Below, in pieces: positions 26,003 to 59,267 of a stretch of DNA of 64,000 nt. The notes beneath the pieces are model-generated. The model saw nothing but the letters and a program-made list of their open reading frames with translations, ran no database searches and was not told where the DNA came from. How positions within the stretch are numbered: the stretch's first letter is position 1; each line of letters starts with the position of its first letter. Made by a program: the position numbers and the translations under genes. The stretch lies in contig CADCGZ010000001.1 in the NCBI GenBank assembly GCA_902801025.1, forward strand, positions 11,091 through 75,090, read 5' to 3'. This stretch comes from an uncultured bacterium (GTDB taxonomy: Bacteria; Verrucomicrobiota; Kiritimatiellia; RFP12; UBA1067).

Positions 26003-27040
26003 ATGAACGCAATCAAGAACATCATTGAAAAGGCCTCGAAGCTGAACGGAACGGTCGTTCTCCCCGAGGGCATGGACCCCCGCGTCATAACCGCCGCGTG
26101 CGCTTGCGTCGACCGCAAGATCGCGACGCCCGTCGTTCTCGGCACTCCCGCGGAAATCGCCGACGCAGAGGCGAAGGCCGGTCTCAAGCTCGCAGACCGC
26201 GGCATCAAGACGATTGACTATACGCAAGGCGACGCGGAACTCGAAGCCGCGTATCTCGAAGCGTGGAACGCAAAGGAGTCGAAGAAGCCGGCCGAGAAGC
26301 AGAAGATCATTGACCTCGCCGCAGCGCAGAAGACGCTCCGCACGAAGCGCATATACTTCGGCGGCATGATGGTTAAGCTTGGTCGCGTCAACGGTCTTGT
26401 CGCGGGTTCGATCGCCTCGACTGGCGACATGCTTCGCGCGGCGTTCCACACGCTTGGCACGCAGAAGGGCGTCAAGACGGCGTCGAGCTGCTTCATCCTC
26501 GACCTCAAGACCCCGACGGCGTCGGGCGACGAAGTGCTCGCGTTCGGCGACTGCGCGGTTATTCCCGATCCGACGGCCGAACAGCTCGTCGACATCGGCC
26601 TTGCTACGGCGCAGACCTACCGCGACCTCACCGGCAAGGAGCCGCGCGTCGCGTACCTCTCGTTCTCCACAAAGGGCTCCGCGGCGGGTCCGCTCGTCGA
26701 GAAGGTCCAGAAGGCCGTCGAGCTCGCAAAGCCCCGCTTCGAGGAAGCCGGCATCAAGATGGATGGCGAGCTGCAGTTCGATGCGGCGATCGTCCCTGCG
26801 ACCGGCAAGCAGAAGAACCCGAACGGCGCCGTGCAGGGCGACGCGAACGTCTTCATTTTCCCTGACCTCAACGCAGGCAACATCGGCTACAAGATCGCGC
26901 AGAGAATCGGTGGCGCCGACGCCATCGGGCCGAACCTCCAGGGACTCGCCAAGGCGATGAACGACCTCTCGCGCGGCTGCTCCGCCGAGGACATCGTTGG
27001 AACCATCTGTGTAACGCTGCTTCAGTCGACGACAAAGTGA
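26003..27040 (+). CDS. pta: phosphate acetyltransferase (short form)
   Basis: 345 aa. VVLPEGMDPRVI, the DCAVIPDP region and FIFPDLNAGNIGYKIAQR are typical Pta/PTA_PTB motifs. Located next to ackA. Confidence 0.95.
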   Translation: MNAIKNIIEKASKLNGTVVLPEGMDPRVITAACACVDRKIATPVVLGTPAEIADAEAKAGLKLADRGIKTIDYTQGDAELEAAYLEAWNAKESKKPAEKQKIIDLAAAQKTLRTKRIYFGGMMVKLGRVNGLVAGSIASTGDMLRAAFHTLGTQKGVKTASSCFILDLKTPTASGDEVLAFGDCAVIPDPTAEQLVDIGLATAQTYRDLTGKEPRVAYLSFSTKGSAAGPLVEKVQKAVELAKPRFEEAGIKMDGELQFDAAIVPATGKQKNPNGAVQGDANVFIFPDLNAGNIGYKIAQRIGGADAIGPNLQGLAKAMNDLSRGCSAEDIVGTICVTLLQSTTK

Positions 27041-28143
27041 CAGACAACAAGATGATCGAGCGCGCGAAGCAAGTCTTCGCAGTTGAGATCGAGGGTCTCG
27101 AGAAGACCCGCGACTCTCTCGGTGCATCTTTTGTCAAGGCGGTCCGGCTCATTCTCGACACTGTCGCGGACGGCGGCATTGTCGTCGTCTCCGGCGTCGG
27201 CAAGAACCTCCACATCGCCGAGAAGATGAGCGCCATCTTCTCTTCGACTGGCACGCGTTCGATCGTCCTCAATCCCGTGCAGGCGATGCATGGCGACCTC
27301 GGCATGGTCTCCGCGAAGGACGTCCTTATCGCGCTTAGCTTCTCCGGCGAGTCGGCCGAGGTCAACAACTTGATTCCCGCGATCCGCCGTCACGGGCTCA
27401 AGGTCATTTCGATGACTGGCCGCCCCGACTCGACGCTTGCGCAGATGAGCGATATCCACATCGAGATTCCGTGCGGCAAGGAGGCGTGTCCGTTCGGCAT
27501 GGCGCCGACGAACTCGACGACGGCGACGATGGCGATGGGCGATGCGCTCGCGATGGTGATGATCGACGCGCAGAAGTTCCCTGTCGAGGACTACGCGATG
27601 AACCATCCGGCGGGCGCGATTGGCAGGGCGCTTGTCATGAAGGTGACGGATGTCATGCGCTCGGGCGAGCGGCTTGCGAAGGTCGGCCCCGAGGCGACCG
27701 TTCTCGATGCGCTGATGGCGATGACGAAGGCGCAGGGCGGCAGTGCCATTGTCGTGGACGCGAGCGGCAAGCTGCTCGGCATCTTCACCGACGGTGACTT
27801 CCGCCGCATCATGAGCGAGAGGGGCAAGTTTGGGTCAAATAGCGTCGGTGTAGAGTCTGGTAGTGTCGGCAAGACCCTGAGCGACTCTAATTCGCCCCTA
27901 AGCGACGCTAAAGGACCCTATTCGACCCTAAGCGACGCTAAAGGACCCTATTCGACCCTAAACGACCCTATCTCCCTCTACATGACCAAGTCTCCGCTCT
28001 TCGTCTACGACGACGCGTATGCTGCGGAGCTCCTCAAGATCTTCGAGAGAAAGCGCATCGACGACCTGCCGGTGTGCGACAAGTCTGGCCGGGTGGTCGG
28101 ACTCGTGGACATCCAAGACCTGCCAAAGATGAAAGTATTGTGA
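27037..28143 (+). CDS. kdsD: KpsF/GutQ-family arabinose-5-phosphate isomerase (SIS + CBS pair) carrying a ~50-codon repeat-derived insertion
   Basis: SIS motifs VVVSGVGKNLHIAEKMSAIFSSTG and ALSFSGES, followed by a CBS pair. GTG 27037 overlaps the pta stop (GTGA); an alternative ATG lies at 27052. The protein is ~40-50 aa longer than typical KdsD, and the excess maps to 27828-27978. Confidence 0.9.
   Translation: MTDNKMIERAKQVFAVEIEGLEKTRDSLGASFVKAVRLILDTVADGGIVVVSGVGKNLHIAEKMSAIFSSTGTRSIVLNPVQAMHGDLGMVSAKDVLIALSFSGESAEVNNLIPAIRRHGLKVISMTGRPDSTLAQMSDIHIEIPCGKEACPFGMAPTNSTTATMAMGDALAMVMIDAQKFPVEDYAMNHPAGAIGRALVMKVTDVMRSGERLAKVGPEATVLDALMAMTKAQGGSAIVVDASGKLLGIFTDGDFRRIMSERGKFGSNSVGVESGSVGKTLSDSNSPLSDAKGPYSTLSDAKGPYSTLNDPISLYMTKSPLFVYDDAYAAELLKIFERKRIDDLPVCDKSGRVVGLVDIQDLPKMKVL
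27828..27978 (+). repeat. in-frame foldback word array inside kdsD: ~4 inverted words (nTAGnGTC) then ~11 forward 10-bp words (GACnCTAn), including a perfect 30-bp x2 duplication (27901-27960)
   Basis: Read directly from the sequence. It encodes KFGSNSVGVESGSVGKTLSDSNSPLSDAKGPYSTLSDAKGPYSTLNDPISL between the two CBS motifs. Confidence 0.9.
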
Positions 28144-29065: not shown

Positions 29066-29118
29066 GGGGTAACGGGGAACGGGAACCGGGTAACGGGGAA
29101 CGGGGAACGGGTAACGGG
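29066..29118 (+). repeat. array of 8 G-tracts (GGGGTAAC/GGGGAAC/GGGTAAC, ~7-bp period): canonical G-quadruplex motif on the + strand
   Basis: G3-4 runs start at 29066, 29074, 29081, 29088, 29095, 29102, 29109 and 29116, separated by 3-4 nt. Located between the stop at 29064 and the pilM ATG at 29133. Confidence 0.85.
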
Positions 29119-29132
29119 AACGGAAACTTTCT

Positions 29133-32916: not shown

Positions 32917-32928
32917 GAAGAATTAGGA

Positions 32929-32934
32929 TATAAT
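32929..32934 (+). promoter_or_regulatory. -10-like TATAAT located 5 nt upstream of the secretin ATG (possible leaderless transcript)
   Basis: GGATATAATACACAATG. The hexamer is at 32929-32934 and the ATG at 32940. Confidence 0.4.
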
Positions 32935-32939
32935 ACACA

Positions 32940-35900
32940 ATGCAAAACATTAGGAGCATGTTCGATATGACGAACCTCAGGACATACGTCGCGCTGACGG
33001 CGACCATCGCTTTCATCGCGCTCGGCCAGAGCATGAACGCGCAGGACGATCTTGACGATCTGCTTGCCGACCTCGAAGGCGAGGCCCCCGCAGCGACACC
33101 AGCCGCGCCTGCACCAGCCGCCGAGGAACCGGCACCGGCGCCCGCAGCTGAAGAGCCTGCGCCAGCGGCCGAGGAACCGGCACCGGCGCCCGCAGCTGAA
33201 GAGCCTGCTGCCGAGGAGCCCGCACCGGCGCCAGCCGCCGAGGAGCCCGCGCCTGCTGCCGAAGAACCGGCACCAGCACCTGCGGCTGAAGAGCCCGCTG
33301 CTGAGGAGCCCGCACCTGCTGCTGAGGAGCCGGCGGCCGAGGAGCCTGCACCTGCAGCTGAAGAGCCCGCACCTGCTGCCGAAGAGCCGGCGGCCGAGGA
33401 GCCTGCACCTGCAGCTGAAGAGCCCGCGGCTGAGGAGCCCGCTGCCGAGGAGCCTGCACCCGCGCCAGCGGCTGAAGAGCCCGCTGCCGAGGAGCCCGCG
33501 CCCGCTGCCGAAGAGCCCGCGCCCGCGCCTGTGGCTGAGGAACCTGCTGCCGAGGAGCCTGCAGCTGAGGAACCTAAGGCTGATGACAAGAAGATTGATG
33601 ATACGCTTAGTCTTCTCGACGAACTCGAGGCCGAGGAGCCCGTCGCAACCGATCAGATCGGGGAGGCGGGCGTCTCGCCCGCGCCGGCGGCCAAAGCCGA
33701 CGAACCGCTTCCAGAGCCCGTCGCTGCGACTGAAGCCGTCGAACCGGCTTCTGCTGCCGAGTCGGAAGAATCGGCCGTAAAGCAGCGGCTTCAGAACAGG
33801 AAAGACGGCGGTCTCATCGGCGAGATCCTGACGGTTGAAAAACTGCGTCGCGAGGCGATGGACACCCAGGCGATGCGCGAGATTTCGGAGGCCCGCGCTG
33901 CGATGACCAGTGGCGAGTATGCCGAAGCCGTCCGTCACTATGGCATTGCCGCTAAGCTCCTGAACGACAGTGAGAAGTCCAAGATCTTCAAGGCCGAGTG
34001 CACTGAAGGCATTGCCGAAGGGCTTTACAGGGCCGCGCTCGAGGAAGAGCGCACCGGTCGCCGCGCGCGTGCGATAAAGTACATGGAGAAGGCCGTCGAC
34101 CTTCGCCACCCGAAGGCCCGCCGCCAGCTTGAGGCCTGGCTTTCCACTGTAGACCCCGATGCCCTCAAGACCGATGTCTCCGAGATTTCGCATCGTCGCA
34201 ACGATGCCGACTACAAGGCCCGTCGCGAAATCGAGCGCCGCCACCTGAAGCGCGCCAGTCAGTTGCTTGCCCAGCGCGAGATCGACCGCGCGCTCGACGA
34301 GTGCGAGCTTGTCCTCGTGAAGGACCCCTACAACCAGGAGGCCCTTCGCCTCAGGGACTCCATCGTCCGGAAGAGCGACGTCATTCTCAAGAAGGAGCGC
34401 GAAGTCGCCCGCGAGAAGTGGATAGCCGACGTCGACAAGGCGTGGCGTCCGAACTACGCCACCGACGCCAAGGACCGCGACGACAAGAAGGGTGCCACCA
34501 TAAAGGCCAAGCCCGACCCCAACAACAAGGAGCGCACGATCGAGCAGACGATCATCCAACGCATGAAGGAGATGCGTCTCCCGGCGATTTCGTTCAAGCC
34601 GCCGGCGACGATCATCGACGCGGTCGAGTATTTCCGCGGCGCTTCGAAGGACTTCGACCGTCCCGAGATCCCGCTTGAGCAGCGCGGCTTCAACTTCGTC
34701 CTCAAGACGCCCGAGGCCGTTCGCATGAAAACGGCCGCAGCGGCGGGCGAGGATGCTGATGACTTCTCCGACACTGGTTCCGACGAGGCGGCGGATGCCG
34801 GCGGGCCGCTTGGCGTTCCTGTCATCCCGATGATCACCGCGAGCGACATCACGTTCTACGACGCCCTCAAGCTCGTGTGCGAATCCGTCGAGTACAAGTT
34901 CACCGTGCAGGGTCCGATCGTCATGGTCATGCACAAGGACATGTCGGTCGAGGAACTCGTCACGCGCTCCTTCCCGGTTCTCTCGTCCTTCACCGAGAAG
35001 ATGGAAAGCGCGAAGGGCGACATCACGACGATGCGCTCGAGCAATAGCGGCTTCGGCGGCGCATCGCGCAAGAACGACGACGGCGAGGAAAACGAAGAGC
35101 GCGACTGGAAGGAGTTCTTCTCGCTCCTCGGCGTCAAGTGGCCCGAGGGCAGCTCGATCTTCTACGTGAAGACCGTCGGCCGGCTCTTCGTAAAGAACAC
35201 CCAGGAGAACCTCGCCGAGTTCGAGAACGTCCTCGCCCAGCTCAACCAGCAGGTCACGCTCGTCGAGATCGAGACGAGGTTCATCGAGGTCTGCCAGGAC
35301 GACCTGACCTCTCTCGGTTTCGAATGGATTCTCAACAGCGACTATTCACTTGGCCTCAACAAGCACCTCGGTAGGGCGCTTGGCATTCGTGGCGGCGCGT
35401 TCAGCGGTCTCGGCGGTGAAATTGGCACTGGCAGTTCCTCCACTTCGACTACTGGCGGCGATACGACGACTATCACGACGCAGGCCGGCGGGATTATCAC
35501 TTCCCAGGGTACGGGCACTGCGGTTTCCGGGGGCAGCAGCTCTGGCACTGCGTCTGCTTTGTCGCAAGACGCTTCTTGGGTGCGTAGCTCTGGTGCAAAA
35601 AGGAACATTGGCATCAATTCGGTTGACGGTGAGACTTATGCAAGCGGGCATCGATATCTCTCGGATGTCGGGAATCATATTTCCGGTGAATCGAAGTCGA
35701 CAAATGATCGCTTTATGCGGCTGAATGCCTTCCTTGGCAGTGCCGACCTCTCGATGATCCTGCACATGCTTTCGCAGCGCAGCGACACCGATCTCCTCTC
35801 TGCTCCGAAGGTGCTGACGCGTCCGGGCGAAGAGGCCGTCATGAAGGTCGTGACGGAGTACATCTACCCGACCGACTACGACGTGCAGCTCCAGTCGAGC

Positions 35901-36611: not shown

Positions 36612-36687
36612 GGGTCAGACCCCTCTGACACAGTAGCTGACACAGCTAAAGCTGCGGTCAGCTACTGCAGTCAGAAAGGTCCGACCC
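36612..36687. repeat. long imperfect hairpin/foldback element immediately after the secretin stop (possible terminator)
   Basis: Outer pairing is GGGTCAGACC (36612-36621) with GGTCCGACCC (36678-36687). Inner pairing is CTGACACAGTAGCTGAC (36625-36641) with GTCAGCTACTGCAGTCAG (36657-36674). The outer words belong to the GACCCTAA family (TTAAGGGTC ... GACCCTCTAAAA). No U-tract. Confidence 0.8.
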
Positions 36688-36696
36688 TCTAAAAAC

Positions 36697-37302
36697 ATGA
36701 AAGTCGCACTAACGGGAGGGATTGCCTGCGGCAAATCCCTCCTTTCTAAGTTTTTGAATGAGCTCGGCGTCGAGACGCTTGACGCCGACGATGTCGTGCA
36801 CGAGTTTCTCCCCGACCCCGAGGAGCGTCGCCGCATCGCGGCTGAAGTCTTCGCCGACCCCGAGAAGCGCCGCGCACTCGAGGCGAAGATACATCCAGTC
36901 GTCAAAGAGAAAATTGACGCTTGGCTTGACAGGACGAGCGGGACTAACAGGACCACCGGGACAGACGTGACAAACGGGACTATCGCCTGTCCCGTTAGTC
37001 TCGGTGGTCTCGTCTGTCCTGTTCGTGTCGCTATAATTCCGCTTTTGTTTGAAGCACACTGGGAGAAAAATTTTGATATAATATGTTGTGTCGCTTCCAC
37101 ACGCGAGAGCCAGATCGAACGTATGACGGCGACGCGGGGGATGACGCTTGCGGAGGCCGAAGCCCGTCTTGCGGCACAGATGCCAGTCGAGGAAAAGGCC
37201 AAGCGTTCGCACTACGTCATTCATAACAACGGCACAGCCGATGAACTTCGCGCAGAGGCGCAAAAATTCGTCGCCTGGTTGCATGAGCAGAAATCCAATT
37301 AA
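36697..37302 (+). CDS. coaE: dephospho-CoA kinase with a 30-codon repeat insertion
   Basis: P-loop VALTGGIACGKS. IHPVV, IPLLFE and the C-terminal HYVIHNNG are typical CoaE. The insertion lies between AWLDR and VAIIPLLFE. Confidence 0.88.
   Translation: MKVALTGGIACGKSLLSKFLNELGVETLDADDVVHEFLPDPEERRRIAAEVFADPEKRRALEAKIHPVVKEKIDAWLDRTSGTNRTTGTDVTNGTIACPVSLGGLVCPVRVAIIPLLFEAHWEKNFDIICCVASTRESQIERMTATRGMTLAEAEARLAAQMPVEEKAKRSHYVIHNNGTADELRAEAQKFVAWLHEQKSN
36940..37029 (+). repeat. 10 x 9-bp in-frame array inside coaE: five GGGACnnnC-type words followed by five reverse-complement GnnnGTCyC-type words
   Basis: GGGACTAAC AGGACCACC GGGACAGAC GTGACAAAC GGGACTATC | GCCTGTCCC GTTAGTCTC GGTGGTCTC GTCTGTCCT GTTCGTGTC. 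It encodes GTNRTTGTDVTNGTIACPVSLGGLVCPVRV. Confidence 0.9.
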
Positions 37303-37328
37303 TTGCGGTATTCAACATGGCGAAGAAG

Positions 37329-37442
37329 TTTTTAACGCAGAGTAGCGGAGTAGCAGAGTAGCAGAGTTGTTTTGGGCCGCGCAAGCGCGGGGTCTGGGGT
37401 GCAACCCCAGCATCAACATCCTCTGCGTCTCTGCGTTAAAAA
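37329..37442. repeat. foldback element / candidate structured RNA between coaE and rho
   Basis: Perfect 14-bp terminal IR: TTTTTAACGCAGAG (37329-37342) and CTCTGCGTTAAAAA (37429-37442). Left arm has 4 x 8-bp CAGAG words (37335-37366). Right arm has 2 x CTCTGCGT (37421-37436). The core is TTTTGGG plus hairpin CCGCGCAAGCGCGG plus hairpin CTGGGGTGCAACCCCAG (37370-37410). Confidence 0.85.
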
Positions 37443-37510
37443 TCAATTCCCCAACTTGAAATTCTACACGATCTACATGTTCTACACGGCTAAAAAAGAT
37501 AGATAAGATT

Positions 37511-39070
37511 ATGGCAGAAGAACTCGATGTGTTTGCGAGCGCCGTCACCAAGAGCGCCGCGCCGAAGCCCCAGCAACCCCAGCCGCCGCAGCAGGGGGGC
37601 AGCGGCAATAATGGCCAGAAAAAGCGGTTCCACAACCGCGGCGGCAAGAACTTTAACCGCGGTGGCGGCAAGCCGAACAACTCCCCGATTCGCGGCGCGA
37701 ACGGCGAGGAGAGCGTAAATCCGCTTCTCAACGCCCCGCTTCCGACGGAACAGCGAGTGCAGGAGGTCGACGCCCCCGCGAACCCGAACCGCAATCCCGA
37801 CCTCCCGGAGTACCGCCTCGCCGACATCCAGACGTGGACTGCGCCGGAGATAGTCGAGCGCATGATGCCCGGCGCCGATCCCGAGGAGCTCGGCACCTAC
37901 CGCAAGCACGAGCTCATCTTCGCCGCTATACGCAGATATCTCGCGAACGGCGGCGCGGTGCTTGCCTCCGGCTGCCTTGAGATCGTCCGCGAAGGGCACG
38001 GCTTCTTGAGGTCCGCGAAGAACAACTTCCTCGCATACCCCGAGGACGTCTTCGTCACGCAGCAGCAGATCCGCCGCCATGCACTCAGGACGGGCGACAT
38101 AGTGGAGGGCCCGATCCGCGATCCGCGCGACCGCGACCGATTCTTCTGCCTCGGCAACGTCGCGACGGTCAACGGCAAGGAGCCGTCCGTCGCCGCCCGC
38201 GTCATACACTTCGAGAACCTGACCGCCACGTTCCCGACGCGGCGCATCATCCTCGAGACCGACCCGAAGGAGTTCTCGACGCGCGTCGTCGACCTCTTCA
38301 CGCCGATCGGCTTCGGACAGCGCGGCCTCATTATCGCGCCGCCGCGCGTCGGCAAGACGGTTCTTCTCCAGAAGATGGCCAATGCGATTTCCAAGAACTA
38401 CCCCGAGGCGATGCTCATCATCCTTCTCATCGACGAGCGCCCCGAGGAAGTCACCGACATGCAGCGCAACACGAAGGCGATGGTGCTTTCGTCTACGTTC
38501 GACGAAGAACCTCAGCACCACGTGAGCGTCACCGAGATGGTCCTCGAGATGTCGAAGCGCCAGGTCGAGAATGGGCGCGACGTGATTATTCTCATGGACT
38601 CGCTGACTCGCATGGCGCGCGCCTACAACACGGTGCAGCCGCATTCCGGCAAGATCCTGACAGGCGGCGTCGACGCGCTCGCGATGCACAGGCCCAAGAG
38701 GTTCTTCGGCGCGGCAAGAAACATCGAGGGCGGCGGCTCGCTCACAATCATTGCAACAGGCCTCGTCGACACGGGTTCCAGGATGGACGAGGTCATTTTC
38801 GAGGAATTCAAGGGCACCGGCAACATGGAAATCGTCCTCGACCGCGGGCTTGCGGACAAGCGCATATACCCGGCGATCGACATCGACAAGTCCGGGACGC
38901 GCAAGGAAGACCTCCTTCTGGATCCGGTCGAACTCGAGAAGACGTGGGGCATGCGCCGCATCCTTTCCGACGCAGGCCCCGAGAGCGCGATGAAGTCGGT
39001 GTTGAACTCGCTCAAGAAGACAAAATCCAATCCAGAGTTCCTGCTTGCCCTCGACCTCAAAAACCTCTAA
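37511..39070 (+). CDS. rho: transcription termination factor Rho with a ~95-aa Gln/Gly/Asn/Arg-rich N-terminal extension
   Basis: 519 aa. GFGFLR-type motif (EGHGFLRS), Walker A (PPRVGKTVLLQ), and the DSLTRMARAYN and IDKSGTRKEDLL motifs are present. The N-terminal extension reads PKPQQPQPPQQGGSGNNGQKKRFHNRGGKNFNRGGGKPNN. Confidence 0.95.
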   Translation: MAEELDVFASAVTKSAAPKPQQPQPPQQGGSGNNGQKKRFHNRGGKNFNRGGGKPNNSPIRGANGEESVNPLLNAPLPTEQRVQEVDAPANPNRNPDLPEYRLADIQTWTAPEIVERMMPGADPEELGTYRKHELIFAAIRRYLANGGAVLASGCLEIVREGHGFLRSAKNNFLAYPEDVFVTQQQIRRHALRTGDIVEGPIRDPRDRDRFFCLGNVATVNGKEPSVAARVIHFENLTATFPTRRIILETDPKEFSTRVVDLFTPIGFGQRGLIIAPPRVGKTVLLQKMANAISKNYPEAMLIILLIDERPEEVTDMQRNTKAMVLSSTFDEEPQHHVSVTEMVLEMSKRQVENGRDVIILMDSLTRMARAYNTVQPHSGKILTGGVDALAMHRPKRFFGAARNIEGGGSLTIIATGLVDTGSRMDEVIFEEFKGTGNMEIVLDRGLADKRIYPAIDIDKSGTRKEDLLLDPVELEKTWGMRRILSDAGPESAMKSVLNSLKKTKSNPEFLLALDLKNL

Positions 39071-39085
39071 ACGGGAGGAAAAGCC

Positions 39086-42000
39086 ATGAAGAAGATCCTT
39101 GCATTGATCGCTTCGGCGTGGACCGCGCTCGCGGTTGGCGCCGCCGTTCAGCTGACAGCGTCAGTCTATGACGACGATACAGGCGGAACCTACACGGGAA
39201 GCGGGGTTTTCGTGGAGGTGACATATTCATGGTGGCAGGGCGAGCGACAGGAGACGGGGGTTGACGATGTATCTGTCACGATAGGCGAATACAACAGCGC
39301 GAGCTACGCTATTGTCCGCGGTTGCATCACGAACGAGAACATCGACCGCGACAAGTGCAAGTGGGAAGTCGTCAGCGACAGTTCCAATCTCGGCTTTGCA
39401 GAGGATGCCAATGGCGCGGACCTTGCGGCTGGATATCTCACCAATCGCGTAGTTGGCGTGCGTGCGGACGGGACCGGAACGTATGGCAAGGCGGCGATAG
39501 TCCTGCATGTCGCGCGGCGGCACTGCACGTTGACGTACAACGCAAACGGCGGCAATGCCTCCGGACTGCCTGGCGCCGTCGAGATTGTCAGCGGCGTATC
39601 GACGCGGCTTACATCTGTGGTTCCTACGCGTTCTGGCTATGCGTTTGGGGGATGGTCGAAGTCCGCTACCAGCATTTCGGCAATGTACAGCCCTGGGGCT
39701 TCGGCGACGTTCTCGGAAGACACGACGCTTTATGCAGTTTGGGTCGCCAACGACTACTCGGTTGCCTTCAACGCCAATGGCGGCACGGGTACAATGGCTA
39801 CGCAGGCGATGACCTATGGGACGCCTACAAGTCTTTCCATCAACGCGTTCACGCGGCCTGGATATGCGTTTGCAGGGTGGTCGTTGACGGCAGACGGCGA
39901 GGTCGCATACACCGACGGGGCCGCAGTTACCGGAATCGCGACTGGTTTAGGCGAGACAGTCATGCTCTATGCCGTCTGGACCCCCGAGGAATATCTGCTG
40001 ACGGTAGATCCAAATGGCGGCGTCTATAAAGGGAGTTCGGAGACAACGGCCTTGTCGCCATCGATCAAGTATGACACGAAGCTGTGGAACAACATTGGCG
40101 CAGCGACTCGGACCGGCTATGCGCTCAGGGGATATTACGCCGACCGCGAAGGCGAGACGCGCGTATACGATGAAAAGGGCAAGAATGTCGCTGCTGGCGG
40201 CTATTGGTCTGCGGCGTATTCGAATGGCGTCTGGAGATGTCTGGGCGACCTGAAGGTCTATGCGCTGTGGTTGCCTGTCGTCTACAAGGTTTCCTTCAAC
40301 GCCAATGGTGGCAATGGCACGATGCCGGCGCAGCAGCTGACTTATGACGCGAAAACCGCGCTGACTTTGAATGCCTTTACCCGCACGGGGTTTGCTTTCG
40401 CCGGCTGGGCGCAGTCCGCCGATGCGGACAAGGCGAGCTACGCCGATGGTGCGGAAGTCCTGAACCTGGCCGACACTGCCAATGCGACTGTCGCGCTCTA
40501 TGCCGTCTGGGAGGCGAGTCGCTACTATGTCGCCTTTGCCGCGAACGGCGGCAAGGGAACGATGAACGCGCAGAACGCGACTTATGGAGTCGAGACCGAC
40601 CTTGAAACAAACGCATTTACAAGGGTGGGGTATGCATTCGGTGGCTGGGCAAAGACGCCAGGCGGGGCCGCTGTCTATGCTGACGGAGCGTCCGTTTCAA
40701 ATCTGACGGACGTCGCCGACGCTACCAACACTCTATATGCCGTGTGGAAGGCCAATGACTATTCCGTCGCCTTTTACGCGAACGGCGGCACGGGGAAGAT
40801 GGATCCGCAGAATGCGACTTACGGGAAGGCGCTCGTCCTTGAGCCCAATACCTTCAGCCGGACGGGTTACGAGTTTGGTGGATGGAAGGCGACGGACGGG
40901 TCGATATACGTAGACGGCGCGACCGTCTCTAACTTGACGACGATCGCCGGCGCCGCAGCTCCGCTCTATGCAGTCTGGACTCCAAAATCGTACGACCTTT
41001 CGTTTGATGCTGACGGCGGCACAGGCGAACTCGCCCCCCGTACGGTTTCCTACGACTCCGCGTATGGCGATTTGCCGACGCCGACTCGTCCTGGCTACGA
41101 TTTCGTCGGATGGTTTGACGAGTCCGGCAAGGAGGTTACGAAGGATACGCGTGCAAAGTCGACGAGCGCAGGGACATTGAAGGCCCGCTGGGCATCGATC
41201 GCCTACAACGTAGTCTTCGACGCGAATGGCGGTGAGGGGTGGAAGGAACCGTTCGAGGCAATCTGCCGCTACGACGAGACGCTCACGCTGCCGGACGAGA
41301 CCTTCGTGCGCGCGGGCTATACATTAGACGGATGGGATTGCGGCGGAACCAATTATGTCTGCGGCGCCATCGTGTCCAACCTGACGACGGCGGCAGGCGG
41401 CCGCGTCACATTTGCCGCGCAATGGAAGCCGGTTGTCTACAATGTCGTCTTCGACGGAAACGGCGGAACATGTGAAACCAATTCGGCTTCGTCCGTCACG
41501 AATGTAGTGACATACGGCGAGGAGCTTGAAGTGCCGGCGTTTGTCCGCCTCGGCCGCGTTCTCAACGGATGGAATTGCGCGGACGCAGCCTATCCTACCA
41601 ACGCCGTAGTGTCCAACTTGACGGCGACGGCTGGCGGGACAGTGAAGATGAGGGCCAATTGGAATCTTGGCCCCAACGATTTGTCGGAGGCGCTGGATAT
41701 TGACAACCTTGTGTTTGAGAACGACGGCGGAGCGTGGACTGTCCGAGATGATGCCGCCGCCGTGAGCGGCACATGCATCGCCGTGACGGGAGACGGCGTA
41801 ACGAATGAAGTCGCCCTTGCGACGGAGACAGACAGTGGCGGTACGATTAGCTTCTGCTGGAAGTTTGCCAGCGTAGATTCCACATCGGCAGCGTTTGGGT
41901 TTAGACTTTACGATTCTACGGAGGGCAAGACCCTCTGGTCTACAAACTATTCTCGGGACACGGCTTCGACAAGTCCGTTTTACGCGGATTATTCGCCTCA

Positions 42001-44572
42001 TTGGGAGCCGTTTTCCACCAACATTGTTGCGGATGGCATTCATAAGCTTCAATGGGAAATAACGGAATCGCATTCCGGCACCGACGACGAAGGCATAATG
42101 CTTGACCATGTGACATGGGAGCCTGCGGGTGGTGCAGCCGGCATTGCCGCAGTGGAAATCCCCGTTGCGGTCCCCGGTCTTGTCTACGACGGCACTAAAA
42201 AGATCGGCGTTGACGAGAATGCGGCCTATACGCTTGTCGGTAATGTCGCGACAAACGCGGACGGATATCTCGCGACTGCGACGCTGAACAACAAGGCCGC
42301 AAGCGTCTGGGCAGACGGCACGACGGACGACAGGGAGATCCCGTGGCGAATCGCTACCAAGGTCATAGATCTTAGCGGCGTTGCGTTTGCGGATGCATCG
42401 TGGAAGTTCGACGGCAAATCCAAGAGTATCAATGCCTCCGGCGTGCCCGCTGGTGTAGAGGTGACCTACGATGGCAATAATCGAACAGAGGTTGGCGAAT
42501 ACACGGTGACAGCGTGGTTCAAGAGCACTTCCACTGGAAATCTGCTGACGAACATGACGGCTACGCTCACGATAGAGGCGCTGAGCGTCGGCGAGCCATC
42601 AGCCGTTGCGGGACTCGTCTACGACGGCACGGCGAAGACTGGCGTTGTCGAAAGTGTCGGTTACACGCTTGCCGAGAACGTTGCGACGGCCGCAGGCGAT
42701 TATGTCGCGACGGCAACGCTTGACGCCGGATATGTCTGGTCCGACAACACGACTGGACCGAAGGAGATTTCGTGGTCGATTGCGCGCGCTACATACGACA
42801 TGGGCGACGTGTTGTTTGAAGACGGGACGTTTGAGTTCGACGGCACGAATCTGTATCTTGCCGTGGAGGGAGATCTTCCCGATGGCGTTGACGTCTACTA
42901 CCTGTACAACGGGAAGTCCGGCGTCGGCTCTTATACGGTCATTGCCAGGTTCACGGCATCCGATGCCGTCAACTACGAGCCGATTCCAGATCTTGCGGCC
43001 ACGCTGACTATCGTGCTCCCTCCGACGAAGATTGAGGTGCCGACGGCCGTGTCGGGGCTTGTCTACGACGGTGCGGCGCAGATCGGCGTCCTTGAAGGCG
43101 TTGGATACGCCCTTGCCGGGAACGTCGAGACGAACGCGGGCTCGCATGCCGCTACCGCGACGCTGGAGGACGGGTATGTCTGGGCTGACGGCACGACGGT
43201 TGCGCAGACAATCCACTGGTCTATTGCCAAGGCAACATACGACATGAGCGGGGTGTCGTTCGCGAGCAAGACGTTTGAGGCCGATGGCACGAAAAAATCT
43301 ATTGCCATTACGGGAACGCTTCCTTCTGGCGTGAAGGTGTCTTATGTTGGCAACGGCCAGACCGAGCCCGGGACATACACGGTGACGGCGAAATTCACGG
43401 GTGACGCGAACAACTACAATTCGATTTCAGATAAAAAGGCCACACTGACCATAACGAAGAAGTCTGATCCTGTCCCGCCAGGCCCAGGCCCTGGGCCAGA
43501 ACCCGATCCTGATCCAGTGGACGAGACGCCCGATCTGTATCCGAGCGGAGTCGCGGTGCTTGGCGCATTCACGGCCGAGAAGGCAGAGACCTACAACGGC
43601 TGGCTTAAGGATGATGCCGAGCGAGTCGTCGCATTGCTGACAGTGAAGACGACAGCGGCAAAATCTGGCAAGCAGACTAAGTCGACGATCACAGTGACGC
43701 CTGTCAATGGAAAGAAGTACACAAAGAAAACGTCTTTCGATCCAGGGGGGAATCCGACCGACGAATTTGGCATCGTCTACGGCTCGCGTGGGCTCCTTGG
43801 CACATTTGGCGGTTATTCCGTCGAGGCCGGTGTAGATGTCTACAAATCCAAGATTTCCGAGGTAAAGGCCCTTGCTGCGAATATTCCAGTTGCGACGCAT
43901 ACGTTCTCCGTCGACACTGGGAACGGCATGGCGGTGTTCTCGGCCGTGATTGCCAAGACTGGCAAGACGAAAGTCCAGGGATATCTTGAAGACGGCGCAA
44001 AGATATCGGTCTACACTACCGGTGCGCTTGGGGAAGAATACTTTGCCGTCCCTGTCGTTTCGCCAAAAGCGGCGACGCGGTGTGGGTTTGTCCTCTGGTT
44101 CCCCCTTGACGGCGGTTCGCCGACACTCGCAAACTTCTACGATTCGAACTGGACGGCTTCGCTGTCTGGTGGATCATACGCCCTGGCCAACGGTGAGCAT
44201 GTCTTTGACTTCGAGGAGCCGGACTTCCGCAATTATCTCGCTTCAGTCGACGGCTTTGCCGTTGCGCCCGTTGGAGCCGTGTTTACCGTTAAGCGCGGCA
44301 AATGGGACGCCGGCAAGACGGTCGGCCGTCTCAAGGTTATCGATGGCGCACCGGCTGTCACCGGAACTTCGTCGCCGTCGAATCTGTCCGCGCTTAAGCT
44401 GACGTATACTGCGAAGTCGGGGCTTGTGAAGGGCTCGTTCAAGCTGTACTATATGGATGGCAAGCGGCTTAAGAATGACACTGTGACGGTTACGGGCGTT
44501 GTTGTCGACGGCAAGCTATTCGGAAGTGGCACAATCAAGAAGCTCGGCTCCTTTGCCGTAACGGCGGAATGA
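39086..44572 (+). CDS. large surface protein (1828 aa): ~10 Listeria-Bacteroides (InlB B / Flg_new) repeats, then YDG-containing MBG-like repeat pairs, a Pro-rich linker and a C-terminal domain
   Basis: GGAGG RBS at 39075-39079. Signal peptide [19 protein letters not shown]. Repeats of the type [24 protein letters not shown]...LYAVW. Repeated VxGLVYDGTxKxGV...ATLTI units. Linker [19 protein letters not shown]. Confidence 0.9.
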
Positions 44573-47481
44573 GCGACATCAGCATACACAACGCCAAGGT
44601 CCACAACCTCAAGGGGATAGACGTCACGATTCCCCGTGACTCGCTTACGGTCGTGACGGGGCTTTCGGGGAGCGGCAAGTCGTCGCTCGCGTTCGACACG
44701 CTCTATGCGGAAGGCCAGCGTCGCTACGTCGAGTCGCTTTCCGCGTATGCGCGGCAGTTCCTCGACAGGATGCAGAAGCCGGACGTAGAAAAGATAGAAG
44801 GGCTCTCGCCTGCGATCTCCATCGAGCAGCGAACGACGAGCGGCAACCCGCGCTCGATTGTCGCGACCGTCACCGAGATACACGACTACCTGCGAATCCT
44901 CTACGGCGCGATTGCGGTTGCGCACTGTCCGCACTGCGGCAAGCCGGTCACTAAGCAGTCGGCGGAGCAGATTGTGGAGGCGATTCTCGGGGAATGGGGA
45001 ACGGGAAACGGGGAACGGGCAGGTGGCGCAAAAATTATCATCTACGCCCCTCTCGTGAAGGGCAAGAAGGGGCGGCACGAAGAGCCGCTTGCCGCCGTCA
45101 AGCGCAACGGCTTTGCGCGCGTCAAGATCGACGGCACGATATATCCCGTCGACGAGCTTCCCGCGCTCGACAAGAAAAAGGCGCACACCATTGACGTCGT
45201 GGTTGACCGCCTCGTGATTCCGGCGGCGCCCGACGCAGCGTTCAAGACGCGCCTCACCGATTCCGTCGAACTTGCTCTCAAGACCGGCAAGGGCATAATG
45301 GAGGTGGAGAGATTGGGGAACGGGGAACGGGATATATACTCAGAACTCAACGCGTGTCCCGATTGCGGTATTTCCTTTGACGAGCTGAAGGCGCGGTCGT
45401 TCTCGTTCAACTCGCCCTTTGGTGCATGTCCGACATGCGCGGGGCTTGGGCAGCTCTACTACTTCGACGAAGATCTCGTCGTGCCCGACAAGTCGCTTCC
45501 GCTCGAGGAGGCGATACACCCGTGGCGTCGCATGGGGCAGATGAACATCCTCTATCACAAGGAGCTTCTTTCGCAAATCGCAAAGCAGAACAAGGTGAAG
45601 CTCTCGACTCCCTACGAGAAGCTGCCGGCGAAGTTCCGACACGGGCTTATGCACGGCTTCAAGGAAGACCTCGTTCTTCCGTGGCGGCGCGTCGACCGTC
45701 CGTTCGAGGGAGTCCTCGCGTCGCTTCAGCGGCGGCTCGACGAGGCGGAGGACGACGAGATGCGTGCGAAGTTCGAGGCATACCAGAGCTTCCGTACCTG
45801 CCCCGACTGCGGCGGTTCGCGGCTTAGGCCCGAGTCGCGCGCGGCGACTGTCGCCGGGAAGTCGATAGTAGAGGTAATGGCGATGCCGGTCACCGAGGCG
45901 CTCGAGTTTTTCAGCGCCATTCAAGATTATGCAAATGGCGTAGTGTCTGATAGAGGTGCGACCCTAACCGACTCTAATCGCCTCCACGGCCTCAAGGACA
46001 TCATCGCGGAGATCGTGCGGCGGCTCCAGTTCCTTCTCGACGTTGGACTAGACTATCTGACGCTCGACCGCGCCGCGTCAACTCTCTCCGGCGGCGAAAT
46101 GCAGCGCATCCGCCTCGCGACGCAAATCGGCTCTGGGCTCACGGGAGTTCTTTATGTGCTCGACGAGCCGACAATCGGCCTCCACCCGCGCGACAACGAG
46201 CGGCTTATCTCTACCCTAAAGGGGCTCCGCGACCGCGGCAACACCGTCGTCGTCGTAGAGCACGACGAAGAGATGATGAGGAACGCCGACTACATCGTCG
46301 ACCTTGGTCCCGGCGCGGGGCGTGAAGGCGGGAAGGTGATGTACCAGGGCGACTTCAAGGGGCTCCTAAAGTCTAAGTCGCTCACCGCCGACTACCTCAC
46401 GGGGAGGAAGAGGGTGGTGACGGCCGACGACCGGCAGCCGACAGTCGCAAGTCGAAAGTCGAACGGATTGTCGGGTGACGGTTGCCGACTGTCGAAAAAC
46501 TCCGCCTACCTCACCATCTCCGGCTGCACCGAGCACAACCTCAAGAACATCACCGCCCGCTTCCCCGTAGGCGCGTTCACCGTGGTGACAGGCGTCTCTG
46601 GCTCCGGCAAGTCGACGCTCGTCGACGAAACGCTAAAGAGGGCGCTTCTCCAGAAGTTCTACCACGCGAAGGCCGTCCCCGGCAAGTTCAAGAAGCTCAC
46701 TGGCTTCGAGAACTTCGACAAGATTGTGGAGATCGACCAATCGCCTATCGGCCGCACTCCGCGCTCGAACCCGGCGACGTACGTCGGCTTCTTCTCCGAG
46801 ATACGCGAGCTTTTCGCGAAGACAGAGTCGGCGCGCGCGCGCGGCTACACTGCGGGGCGCTTCTCGTTCAATGTGAAGGGCGGAAGGTGCGAGACGTGCG
46901 GCGGCGATGGCCTCCAGAAGCTCGAGATGAGCTTCCTCCCCGATGTCTACGTCACATGCGACCAGTGCGGCGGCAAGCGCTTCAACGCCGAGACTCTTGA
47001 AGTCACCTACGGCGGCAAGAACATCGCCGATGTCCTCGAGATGACGGTCGCCGAGGGGTGCGAGTTCTTCGCGAAGGTGCCGTCCCTCGCCCGCAAGCTC
47101 CAGACGCTTGTCGACGTCGGGCTTGGCTATGTCGCTCTCGGGCAGTCCGCGACGACGCTCTCAGGCGGCGAGGCACAGCGCATCAAGCTCGCGACGGAAC
47201 TTTCACGCCGCTCGACGGGCCGCACACTCTATCTTCTCGACGAACCGACGACGGGGCTCCACTTCGACGACGTGGCGAAGCTGATGAAGCTTCTCCTGCG
47301 GCTCCGCGACCAGGGGAACACGATCATCGTCATTGAGCACAACGTAGACGTGATGAGGTGCGCCGACTGGATCGTCGATCTCGGGCCCGGCGGGGGCGAT
47401 GCGGGCGGCGAGCTTGTCTGCGAAGGGCCGATTTCGGCCATTAAGGCATGCAAATCTTCCATCACTGGGCGCTTTTTGTAA
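44569..47481 (+). CDS. uvrA: excinuclease ABC subunit A
   Basis: 970 aa. [58 protein letters not shown] and [12 protein letters not shown] are present. The ATG overlaps the upstream stop (ATGA, 44569-44572). Confidence 0.96.
45938..45985 (+). repeat. in-frame copy of the GACCCTAA-family foldback element inside uvrA
   Basis: GTAGTGTCTGATAGAGGTGCGACCCTAACCGACTCTAATCGCCTCC aligns with kdsD 27850-27898 (GTAGAGTCTGGTAGTGTCGGCAAGACCCTGAGCGACTCTAATTCGCCCC). It encodes ..[18 protein letters not shown].. in a segment that I recall as longer than in E. coli UvrA. Confidence 0.8.
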
Positions 47482-47492
47482 TCCGCCCTTTT

Positions 47493-47501
47493 TGATATAA
47501 T
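47493..47501 (+). promoter_or_regulatory. extended -10 promoter (TGATATAAT) upstream of recA
   Basis: The TTTTTGATATAAT motif recurs at 37071-37082 and, as TATAAC, at 57986-57998. It would give recA a ~100-nt leader containing the CTCTGCG array. Confidence 0.45.
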
Positions 47502-55775: not shown

Positions 55776-55784
55776 TGGTATAAT
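55776..55784 (+). promoter_or_regulatory. extended -10 promoter TGGTATAAT, 9 nt upstream of the parE-like ATG
   Basis: TATGGTATAATATCTGCTCTATG has the same geometry as the tkt promoter TATGGTATAATATACCCCCTATG. Confidence 0.5.
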
Positions 55785-57649: not shown

Positions 57650-57658
57650 TGGTATAAT
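57650..57658 (+). promoter_or_regulatory. extended -10 promoter TGGTATAAT upstream of the low-GC orphan ORF
   Basis: TTGTGGTATAATAAC, 77 nt upstream of ATG 57735. Confidence 0.4.
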
Positions 57659-58624: not shown

Positions 58625-59266
58625 ATGGAAATATTCGGGTACGCCTTCAAGAACGCCGCGCTTCTCGAAGAAGCGCTGACGACGCCGTCGTTCAAGATGA
58701 GCAGTCCGGATGCGGCCGACAACCAGCGGCTCGAATTCCTCGGCGACGCCGTTCTCGGCTTCATCGCGGCGGAGCGGCTCTACGGCTCCCTGCCCGACGC
58801 GCCGGAAGGCGTTCTCACCGTAAAGCGCACGCACATGGTCTCCTCTGCCGCGCTCTGCGAGGCGGCCGCGCGCCACGATCTCGCTCCTCGCCTCAGGCGC
58901 AACAAGGGCGCGGCGCCTCTCCCGGAAAACTCGAAGACTCTCGCCGACGCAGTTGAGGCCGTGATCGGCGCCGCATTCCTCGACGGCGGTCTCGACGCTG
59001 CGCGGACGATTTTCGACGCCTTGGATCTCGCCTCGATGGCCGACACTGCCGGTTTCAACCCCAAAGGCGACCTCCAGATCCGTGCGCAGGCCATGACTCC
59101 GCCGCGCCACCCCACCTACCAGCTCGTCAAGACCGAGGGCAGCGACCACGAGCCGGTCTTCACCGTGGAAGTCACCGTAGACGGTCTTGGAACCGCTTCC
59201 GCGTCGGCGCACAGCCACAAGGAAGCCGAGGCGCTTGCCGCCGCGAAACTCCTATCTATGGTATAA
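58625..59266 (+). CDS. rnc: ribonuclease III
   Basis: 213 aa. RNase III signature NQRLEFLGDAVL and ADAVEAVIGAAFLD. The C-terminal dsRBD-like segment ends KEAEALAAAKLL. Confidence 0.9.
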   Translation: MEIFGYAFKNAALLEEALTTPSFKMSSPDAADNQRLEFLGDAVLGFIAAERLYGSLPDAPEGVLTVKRTHMVSSAALCEAAARHDLAPRLRRNKGAAPLPENSKTLADAVEAVIGAAFLDGGLDAARTIFDALDLASMADTAGFNPKGDLQIRAQAMTPPRHPTYQLVKTEGSDHEPVFTVEVTVDGLGTASASAHSHKEAEALAAAKLLSMV

Positions 59267-59267
59267 T
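59259..59267 (+). promoter_or_regulatory. extended -10 promoter TGGTATAAT inside the rnc 3' end, 9 nt upstream of the tkt ATG
   Basis: TATGGTATAATATACCCCCTATG. The hexamer is at 59262-59267 and the ATG at 59277. Confidence 0.5.

Follow-up and report, generated by a model that had tools for sequence, protein, structure and literature searches.

An in-frame array of palindromic words in coaE of a Kiritimatiellae bacterium may be a passenger repeat at a recurrent hot spot

Palindromic repeats situated in frame within protein-coding housekeeping genes have been described as Rickettsia palindromic elements (RPEs) (Ogata et al. 2000, 2002, reviewed in PMC10969869). Hairpin-forming repeats made up of short tandem motifs are furthermore known from organelles, both as the LIMP and HyLIMP 'repetitive palindromic repeats' of the Lobosphaera incisa mitochondrion, where tandem AACCA is followed by a loop and tandem TGGTT (PMC4524435), and as the palindromic microsatellite repeats of Fusarium mitochondria (PMC7218506). 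Dispersed palindromes likewise include the REP/BIME sequences and bacterial MITEs (miniature transposable elements with inverted repeats), REPs being extragenic, 20-40 bp long, equipped with a GTAG/CGTC head and RAYT-dependent, and MITEs having terminal inverted repeats and target-site duplications (PMC3733652, PMC3184786, PMC10969869). Finally, quasipalindromes are subject to template-switch mutagenesis (PMC7202029, PMC8604942), a process that creates and maintains hairpins (PMC8794818). We found nothing in the literature that deals specifically with repeats of Kiritimatiellae. Here we analyse a stretch of 64,000 nucleotides from contig CADCGZ010000001.1 of an uncultured bacterium, hereafter the window, in which the dephospho-CoA kinase gene coaE is interrupted in frame by an array of ten 9-nt words, and on balance we consider it probable that this array is an RPE-like passenger repeat of LIMP-like word-array architecture at a recurrent insertion hot spot.

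The source organism belongs to the gut and rumen Kiritimatiellae, its relatives in a scan of species-representative genomes being metagenome-assembled genomes of gut and rumen Kiritimatiellae; their loci are denoted by L numbers below. The gene and its insert are as follows.

36697-37302, + strand: coaE (dephospho-CoA kinase), 201 aa, with a core of ~176 aa without the insert, called from the open reading frame (ORF) and profile matches.
36930-37029, + strand: hypervariable cassette with the in-frame word-array insert, codons ~79-111, peptide TSGTNRTTGTDVTNGTIACPVSLGGLVCPV.
Within 36940-37029, + strand: words 1-5, having the GGGAC-type core, GGGACTAAC, AGGACCACC, GGGACAGAC, GTGACAAAC and GGGACTATC.
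Within 36940-37029, + strand: words 6-10, having the complementary GTCYC core, GCCTGTCCC, GTTAGTCTC, GGTGGTCTC, GTCTGTCCT and GTTCGTGTC.
36934-36980, + strand: 5' arm of the hairpin, with AGGAC/GGGAC/GTGAC cores and the 4-nt spacers GAGC, TAAC, CACC, AGAC and AAAC.
36989-37026, + strand: 3' arm of the hairpin, with GTCCC/GTCTC/GTCCT cores and the spacers GTTA, GGTG, GTCT and GTTC.

The ORF matches Pfam PF01121 (CoaE) at 1.1e-32 and scores 95.6 bits against NCBIfam TIGR00152, which is above the curated cut-off of 65.6, it contains the P-loop and PLL(F/V)E motifs, and it is matched by the CoaE homologues of the PDB. It is found in the gene order kpsF-like, Amuc_1102-like, pilM-like, Amuc_1100-like, TSP3-repeat gene, Amuc_1098-family secretin, coaE, rho. 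A sequence-only reading of the window had called ten words at 36940-37029, and positions and words are exactly as it gave them, five GGGACnnnn-type words being followed, in frame in coaE, by five words of the complementary type. In terms of reverse-complement Hamming distance the best matches are words 1/7, 3/6 and 3/9, which differ by 1 each, and words 2/8, which differ by 2. Period 9 is called at 36939-36980 by Tandem Repeats Finder, one extra unit of the array, AGGACGAGC, lies upstream at 36931-36939, and the inverted-repeat arms of 44 nt (36937-36980 and 36989-37032) are 73% complementary. The flanking codons join the hairpin, and the RNA folds into one long imperfect stem spanning 36934-37026 with an apical loop at ~36981-36988, at -58.1 kcal/mol and z = -6.1, none of 200 shuffles being as good; the DNA fold of the array has z = -4.4. 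The sequence of the 3' arm is identical in L010. The array is the top inverted repeat of the window, sliding 110-nt folds across the 64 kb place it among the two strongest structures, and array and hairpin are beyond chance.

Energies of pure-axis hairpins are -55.6 kcal/mol in register 0, -52.7 kcal/mol when shifted by +1 unit and -47.7 kcal/mol when shifted by -1 unit. These three registers explain alternative pairings without recourse to a pseudoknot and provide a ready route to gain and loss of units; the structure is a register-slippery plain hairpin, and the number of units indeed differs among alleles. The sequence-only reading had pointed out that the word pairs occur in the same rather than mirrored order, and had proposed alternative or pseudoknot-like pairings for this reason. 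The same-order pairing is true of the allele group of the window, where the spacers TAAC/GTTA, CACC/GGTG and AGAC/GTCT are complementary in parallel at 12/12 positions, but it has no bearing on the other 11 GGGAC alleles, in which this complementarity is absent. Several registers are likewise possible, but the minimum-energy fold is a plain mirrored hairpin, and we therefore discarded the pseudoknot, and the shared order, as a defining trait of the element.

The sequence-only reading had allowed for the possibility that the insert would be missing from other data. A protein with 99% identity and the same insert (P0001) is however encoded on 15 contigs from independent assemblies, and the insert is also present on metagenome contigs of JGI and ENA. 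A metagenome scan with the 3' arm furthermore yielded ten more coaE alleles, and 13 distinct related alleles are found over 18 loci, JGI and ENA assemblies included.

Comparing coaE orthologues from ~45 species-level Kiritimatiellae loci, we find that the flanks of the insert, K-I-D-x-W-L ... V-R-V-A-I-I-P-L-L-F-E, are conserved throughout, and that outgroups have only 21-39 nt between them and encode CoaE proteins of 174-180 aa, while inserts of up to 267 nt occur in the clade nearest the window. The insert is thereby confirmed to lie where originally described, after the AWLD helix and before the IPLLFE strand, orthologues and PDB homologues lacking it, and the alignment reveals a short ancestral loop at what is a hypervariable site. 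As judged from these comparisons, the ancestral CoaE had no insert and that of the window is derived. Some insert is present in all of 120 close CoaE homologues (66-99% identity), and kinds and lengths differ. Inserts of at least 40 nt are found in 29 loci and fall into 15 similarity clusters, about ten of which are word-array or hairpin families, including the following.

coaE loop of the window, L001, L006 and L010-12: GGGAC family with period 9.
coaE loop of L015/16: related GGGAC/GTGAC period-9 array in another frame, encoding R-D-V-G-D-A instead of G-T-N.
coaE loop of L004 (L004 10234-10273): GGGGTCAG runs, 4 copies.
coaE loop of relatives: TTAACGCAGAG...CTCTGCGTT composite.
coaE loop of relatives: GGGTCAGACCCC hairpin with CAACTTT repeats.
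coaE loop of relatives: CGAATAAT words.
coaE loop of relatives: GGAAGAAGG words.
coaE loop of relatives: GGGAGGTTT words.
coaE loop of relatives: two long elements.

In the Rho tree, at least six insert types occur among species of one genus, having Rho proteins at least 98% identical, the sister clade has other insert types or none (L017, L031), and the distant L041 has gained its insert independently. Furthermore, the window and L004 are colinear by blastn over 20 kb at ~93% nucleotide identity save for cassette-like breaks, and one of these is located exactly at 36929/37030. The peptides encoded by the inserts are unrelated among congeneric species, and similar DNA words are translated in different frames. 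Segment 36930-37029 behaves like an intergenic spacer inside a gene, and it is swapped as a cassette among close relatives, about ten unrelated repeat families being found at the same codon position. This hypervariable hot spot, which holds unrelated repeat families in sister species, is the point that the sequence-only reading had missed. Its suggestion that each unit is three codons long and therefore read in one phase does not describe the site in general, since some relatives have words of 7 and 8 nt and since the related period-9 array of L015/L016 is in another frame.

Several of the families are dispersed repeats, which are also found in spacers and in frame in kpsF. Two hairpins in the spacers around coaE are relevant here.

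36612-36690, + strand: H1, a word-array hairpin in the secretin-coaE spacer, the strongest fold of the window (z = -5.4).
37331-37440, + strand: H3, a composite hairpin TTAACGCAGAG...CTCTGCGTTAAA in the coaE-rho spacer, with a homologue inside coaE in L007/L014.

The element within coaE of L007 and L014 is thus homologous to the spacer element H3 of the window and also to another copy in L014. The coaE insert of L051 has three more copies of 90% identity within 20 kb, one of which lies within kpsF, again in frame, and is translated into the same peptide (VLSPAA..ASHPSSD.LRG..SGDMLV.SRGKAALVQG). The same site of kpsF is occupied in the window, where a second in-frame array (27873-27970) with a period of 10/30 nt, GACCCTAAGCGACGCTAAAGGACCCTATTC, lies in the kpsF-like ORF 27037-28143 and lengthens the KpsF/GutQ protein by 39 residues, the remainder being 100% identical to the L004 protein. 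Insert words of L013, L023, L025, L029, L004, L008 and L041 likewise recur elsewhere in their own loci, and H1, which is built of the 12-nt words CTGACACAGTAG and their complement within a GGGTCAGACCCC / GGTCCGACCC clamp, is replaced in L007 and L010. As to the GGGAC family itself, a rumen metagenome contig of 1341 nt (L065) has a GGGAC period-9 hairpin (-99 kcal/mol, z = -5.9) directly after a stop codon, the gene encoding a four-helix-bundle protein with a suffix domain (TIGR02436/TIGR04258), and a second GGGAC array lies in the N-terminal coding region of the four-helix-bundle gene, where it encodes a GT-rich stretch and is read G-T-x as in coaE. No homologue of this protein that could be a carrier of GGGAC arrays was found in the window or the loci.

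G-run arrays are also present in spacers of the window, GGGGAAC in 8 copies and CGGGGAA in 4.6 copies (29067-29127 and 44988-45019), and these and the L004 GGGGTCAG runs have four-G runs with 3-nt spacers on the sense strand, that is G-quadruplex-type motifs.

The sequence-only reading had also suggested that coaE may contain internal promoters just downstream of the array, and its two candidates and the gene that follows are listed here.

37032-37037, + strand: TATAAT in codons A112-I114, not conserved and probably incidental.
37074-37082, + strand: TGATATAAT extended -10 promoter in coaE codons F126-I129, with an expected transcription start near 37089.
37511-39070, + strand: rho (NCBIfam Rho, 7.6e-179), the gene most likely served by the embedded promoter.

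The first candidate was rejected, since codons 112-114 vary freely among species (GCT ATA ATT, GCC ATC ATC, GCA GTC ATC and others). The second, proposed as TTTTGATATAAT at 37071-37082, is very probably real, as its synonymous sites are invariant in 27 species and as it occurs only where rho is downstream. Indeed D127 GAT, I128 ATA and I129 ATA are the only codons of coaE that are invariant at the nucleotide level in these 27 species, as compared with a mean major-codon fraction of 0.69 for the gene, and over 15 long ORFs of the window only 12.8% of Ile codons are ATA. The motif TGNTATAAT occurs 5 times in the window, where 0.17 occurrences are expected, always on the + (coding) strand, and the other four copies lie just upstream of gene starts. 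TGATATAAT, which lies 45 nt downstream of the cassette, is present in 40/40 loci of the clade in which coaE is followed directly by rho and in 0/7 loci where rho is not adjacent, and it is also absent from 3 distant rho-bearing loci. The site thus combines the TGnTATAAT consensus of sigma-70 extended -10 promoters with coding-strand enrichment upstream of genes and conservation beyond the needs of the protein. The adjacency of coaE and rho is conserved among relatives, and the called gap between them, which is only 20 nt in L010 and L012, could hardly accommodate another promoter for rho. TGATATAAT is therefore most likely the rho promoter, or one of several, and this putative promoter is the best-supported functional element in what the sequence-only reading had pointed to.

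The coaE-rho spacer (37303-37510) is as hypervariable as the loop, and the spacers of the window and L001, whose CoaE proteins are 99% identical, are wholly different. Among the spacers compared (window, L001, L013, L014, L023-L029 and L048) most are C-rich and G-poor word arrays (CTGACCCC, CTCCAA, CATTCGA, CCTCAC), and these possibly serve as Rho-loading (rut) sites of a rho leader that is under autoregulation. The insert of L013 (5301-5390) is the reverse complement of the coaE-rho spacer of the same locus (5683-5838) over 70 nt at 89%, and the embedded promoter lies, together with the 3' half of coaE, between the two arms of this long-range inverted repeat. Further (TG)nTATAAT sites on the coding strand of the window are found at 32927-32934, 47493-47501, 55776-55784, 57650-57658 and 59259-59267. 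Sites of this type lie 5-10 nt before the start codons of the secretin gene, a gyrB-like gene and the gene after an rnc-like ORF, a spacing that suggests leaderless or near-leaderless mRNAs, and the site at 57650, which has no obvious ORF after it, could belong to a non-coding RNA.

Some other features of the locus should also be mentioned. The P-loop codons of coaE (36714-36743) form a conserved hairpin, GGAGGGATTGCC TGC GGCAAATCCCTCC, of -20.6 kcal/mol, which is followed by TTTCTAAGTTTTTG; across about 25 species its synonymous conservation amounts to 0.85-0.96, and in L019 and L021 the amino acids are altered and a different, compensated hairpin is retained. This hairpin could act as an attenuator or terminator immediately within coaE. 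The Amuc_1098-family secretin has a long PAPAAEE-type tandem repeat with periods of 15-93 nt in its N-terminal region (33107-33583), and the giant Flg_new-repeat gene downstream of rho (39068-44575) has no counterpart in L010, where uvrA comes next in the alignment after the end of rho.

The notion that the insert is a passenger has to be weighed against several alternatives. Palindromes and short repeats can be mis-assembled, but an assembly or chimera artefact would have to have produced an identical insert on 15 contigs from independent studies as well as 13 related alleles in 18 loci with the reading frame kept every time, and this explanation is so improbable as to be negligible. The insert could also be an adaptive new loop of CoaE, for instance of N-G-T repeats, that is selected at the protein level, as every variant is in frame and stop-free and as L065 again has a GT-rich peptide, read in the frame used in coaE. 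However, coaE is essential in E. coli, and purifying selection on such a gene explains the in-frame state by itself; the peptides found at the site are moreover unrelated among congeners, the related DNA array of L015/L016 is in another frame, and the number of units ranges from 2 to 12 per arm. The structure prediction that had been proposed for the insert points in the same direction. The AlphaFold2 model of the window CoaE has a mean pLDDT score of 78 and is confident everywhere but in residues 82-106, which have pLDDT <50 and no secondary structure and lie between helix 55-77 and strand 110-113, a position where CoaE structures in the PDB have a short connection of ~8 residues. The insert peptide is hence predicted to be a disordered, structurally permissive surface loop compatible with the fold, and an adaptive origin of the loop seems very unlikely.

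A more serious contender is that the insert is a functional nucleic-acid structure at an operon boundary, hidden in coaE, where a hairpin or G-run array upstream of the rho promoter would attenuate, pause or process secretin-coaE transcripts, or insulate the promoter. Turnover of sequence would be tolerated in this case, as any strongly structured sequence would suffice. A number of observations favour such a function and weigh against a mere passenger. Among more than 120 CoaE variants of the genus there is none that has reverted to the short loop of the ancestor, and nearly all carry structure-forming sequence, be it a hairpin or a G-run array, which could mean that selection keeps some insert. 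Of the 29 inserts that measure at least 40 nt, 17 have folds with z <= -3, and L004 instead has four GGGG runs with 3-nt spacers. The site furthermore lies upstream of the conserved TGATATAAT at a distance that is fixed (about -50 and beyond), the five strongest hairpins of the 64 kb include three that are situated beside or within coaE (H1, the insert and H3), and the L013 insert, being complementary to its own coaE-rho spacer, could sequester the C-rich leader. Two negative results likewise speak against a mobile passenger, namely that searches for further copies of the GGGAC element drew a blank in the 64-kb window (blastn-short) and in ~1 Mb of related flanks, and that no signature of mobility, such as a transposase or a terminal inverted repeat with target-site duplication, was identified, no systematic test for duplications or search for transposases having been made. 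On the other hand, L017 and L031 have promoter and rho and lack the insert, the inserts of L013, L009 and L004 lack a local fold, the same element families are also found in kpsF and in ordinary spacers, and the hairpin is located upstream of the presumed start of transcription and hence absent from promoter-derived rho transcripts. A terminator scan found no intrinsic terminator at the hairpin, which has no U-tract, the nearest T-rich run beginning ~17 nt past the stem and being absent in L012, L014 and L015. GGGAC alleles do fold slightly better as sense RNA, but sense and antisense RNAs generally fold alike, and the small differences vary in direction by family; selection of sense-strand RNA through a G-U bias was rejected for want of a consistent bias across species. 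Arms can be unequal, with 5 vs 12 units in L006 and 2 vs 4 in L070, and a correlation of arm lengths over 89 GGGAC-type proteins, r = 0.11 by a crude measure and not significant, was dropped. Rfam returned nothing on the insert, and only sub-threshold microRNA-like matches on H1. Taken together, we found no consistent sign of selection on the hairpin and its function is unproven, so that a functional structure appears unlikely, albeit far from negligible.

Returning to the passenger repeat, the array would be a copy of a fast-evolving kind of repeat DNA of this lineage, the word-array hairpin, in which tandem short words are followed by complementary words. It would have arrived or grown in coaE by insertion or recombinational capture, the route of spread being transposition or capture at a fragile palindrome, and would thereafter gain and lose units by slippage, while template switching copies one arm onto the other (PMC7202029, PMC8794818). 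The peptide would be a passenger without a function of its own, and the hairpin would likewise have no required function. Since coaE is essential in E. coli, and presumably here as well, selection for an intact CoaE frame would act as a filter and eliminate all versions but those that are in frame and stop-free. If this is true, in-frame palindromic passenger repeats are not peculiar to Rickettsia, and occur also in a gut lineage that is free-living, where their word-array architecture is distinct, and one codon position of an essential-type gene is a recurrent hot spot for about ten unrelated repeat families within one genus. The locus would then constitute a natural system in which one could study the spread and turnover of hairpin repeats, the tolerance of proteins to arbitrary loop insertions and the persistence of fragile palindromes in coding DNA, and the rho promoter in coaE codons together with the hypervariable C-rich leader bears on annotation and on Rho regulation in the phylum. 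A bolder proposal, which is speculative and in our opinion rather improbable, is that word-array hairpins are an undescribed self-propagating class of bacterial repeats, counterparts of the organellar LIMP elements that make RPE-like coding insertions and have the loops of coaE and kpsF as preferred sites of landing and turnover, or else that the coaE site is an evolvable 'structure slot', kept by selection upstream of the embedded rho promoter, through which read-through into rho is tuned. In the latter version the rho leader, itself made up of C-rich word arrays, may contain possible Rho-loading sites.

As for the systems described previously, REP/BIME sequences resemble the present repeats in being dispersed palindromes typical of spacers within operons, for which roles in mRNA stability or termination have been proposed, but the coaE element is ~95 nt long and intragenic and therefore falls outside their definition. 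A comparison with MITEs is hampered by the coaE element being palindromic as a whole, so that terminal inverted repeats cannot be told from the stem. Template switching can lengthen and homogenise arms and alter coding sequence without selection, which fits a slippery hairpin with shared units, but it is a mutational process and not a family of elements, and alone it leaves the arrival of unrelated dispersed families unexplained. The LIMP and Fusarium repeats come closer, since they too consist of a tandem short motif, a loop and the tandem complementary motif and are dispersed, optional among close relatives and associated with indels. They are however organellar and intergenic and have motifs of 5 or 10 nt, whereas the coaE array is situated on a bacterial chromosome, in frame in an essential-type gene, and has a 9-nt motif with a fixed 5-nt core and variable 4-nt spacers.

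With RPEs the present repeats share that a hairpin-forming repeat (~100-250 nt) is found in frame in housekeeping genes and is absent from orthologues, that the peptide is placed where the fold is undisturbed, as predicted here from AlphaFold2 and the alignment with PDB structures, that one family encodes the same peptide in different genes (coaE and kpsF of L051), and that copies are found in intergenic DNA too, which holds for the sister families of L051 and L014/L007 and not for GGGAC in the sampled flanks. Unlike in RPEs, the arms are arrays of 7-12-nt words with a variable number of units, many unrelated families replace each other at one codon position in congeners, the host is a free-living gut Kiritimatiellae with ~61% GC, and the GGGAC family has no second copy in the flanks that were sampled. 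By analogy, then, the closest known behaviour appears to be that of RPEs and the closest known architecture that of LIMP, and what is new in relation to these systems is that RPE behaviour and LIMP architecture are combined in a bacterial chromosome and, above all, that unrelated families are found in turn at one and the same codon position.

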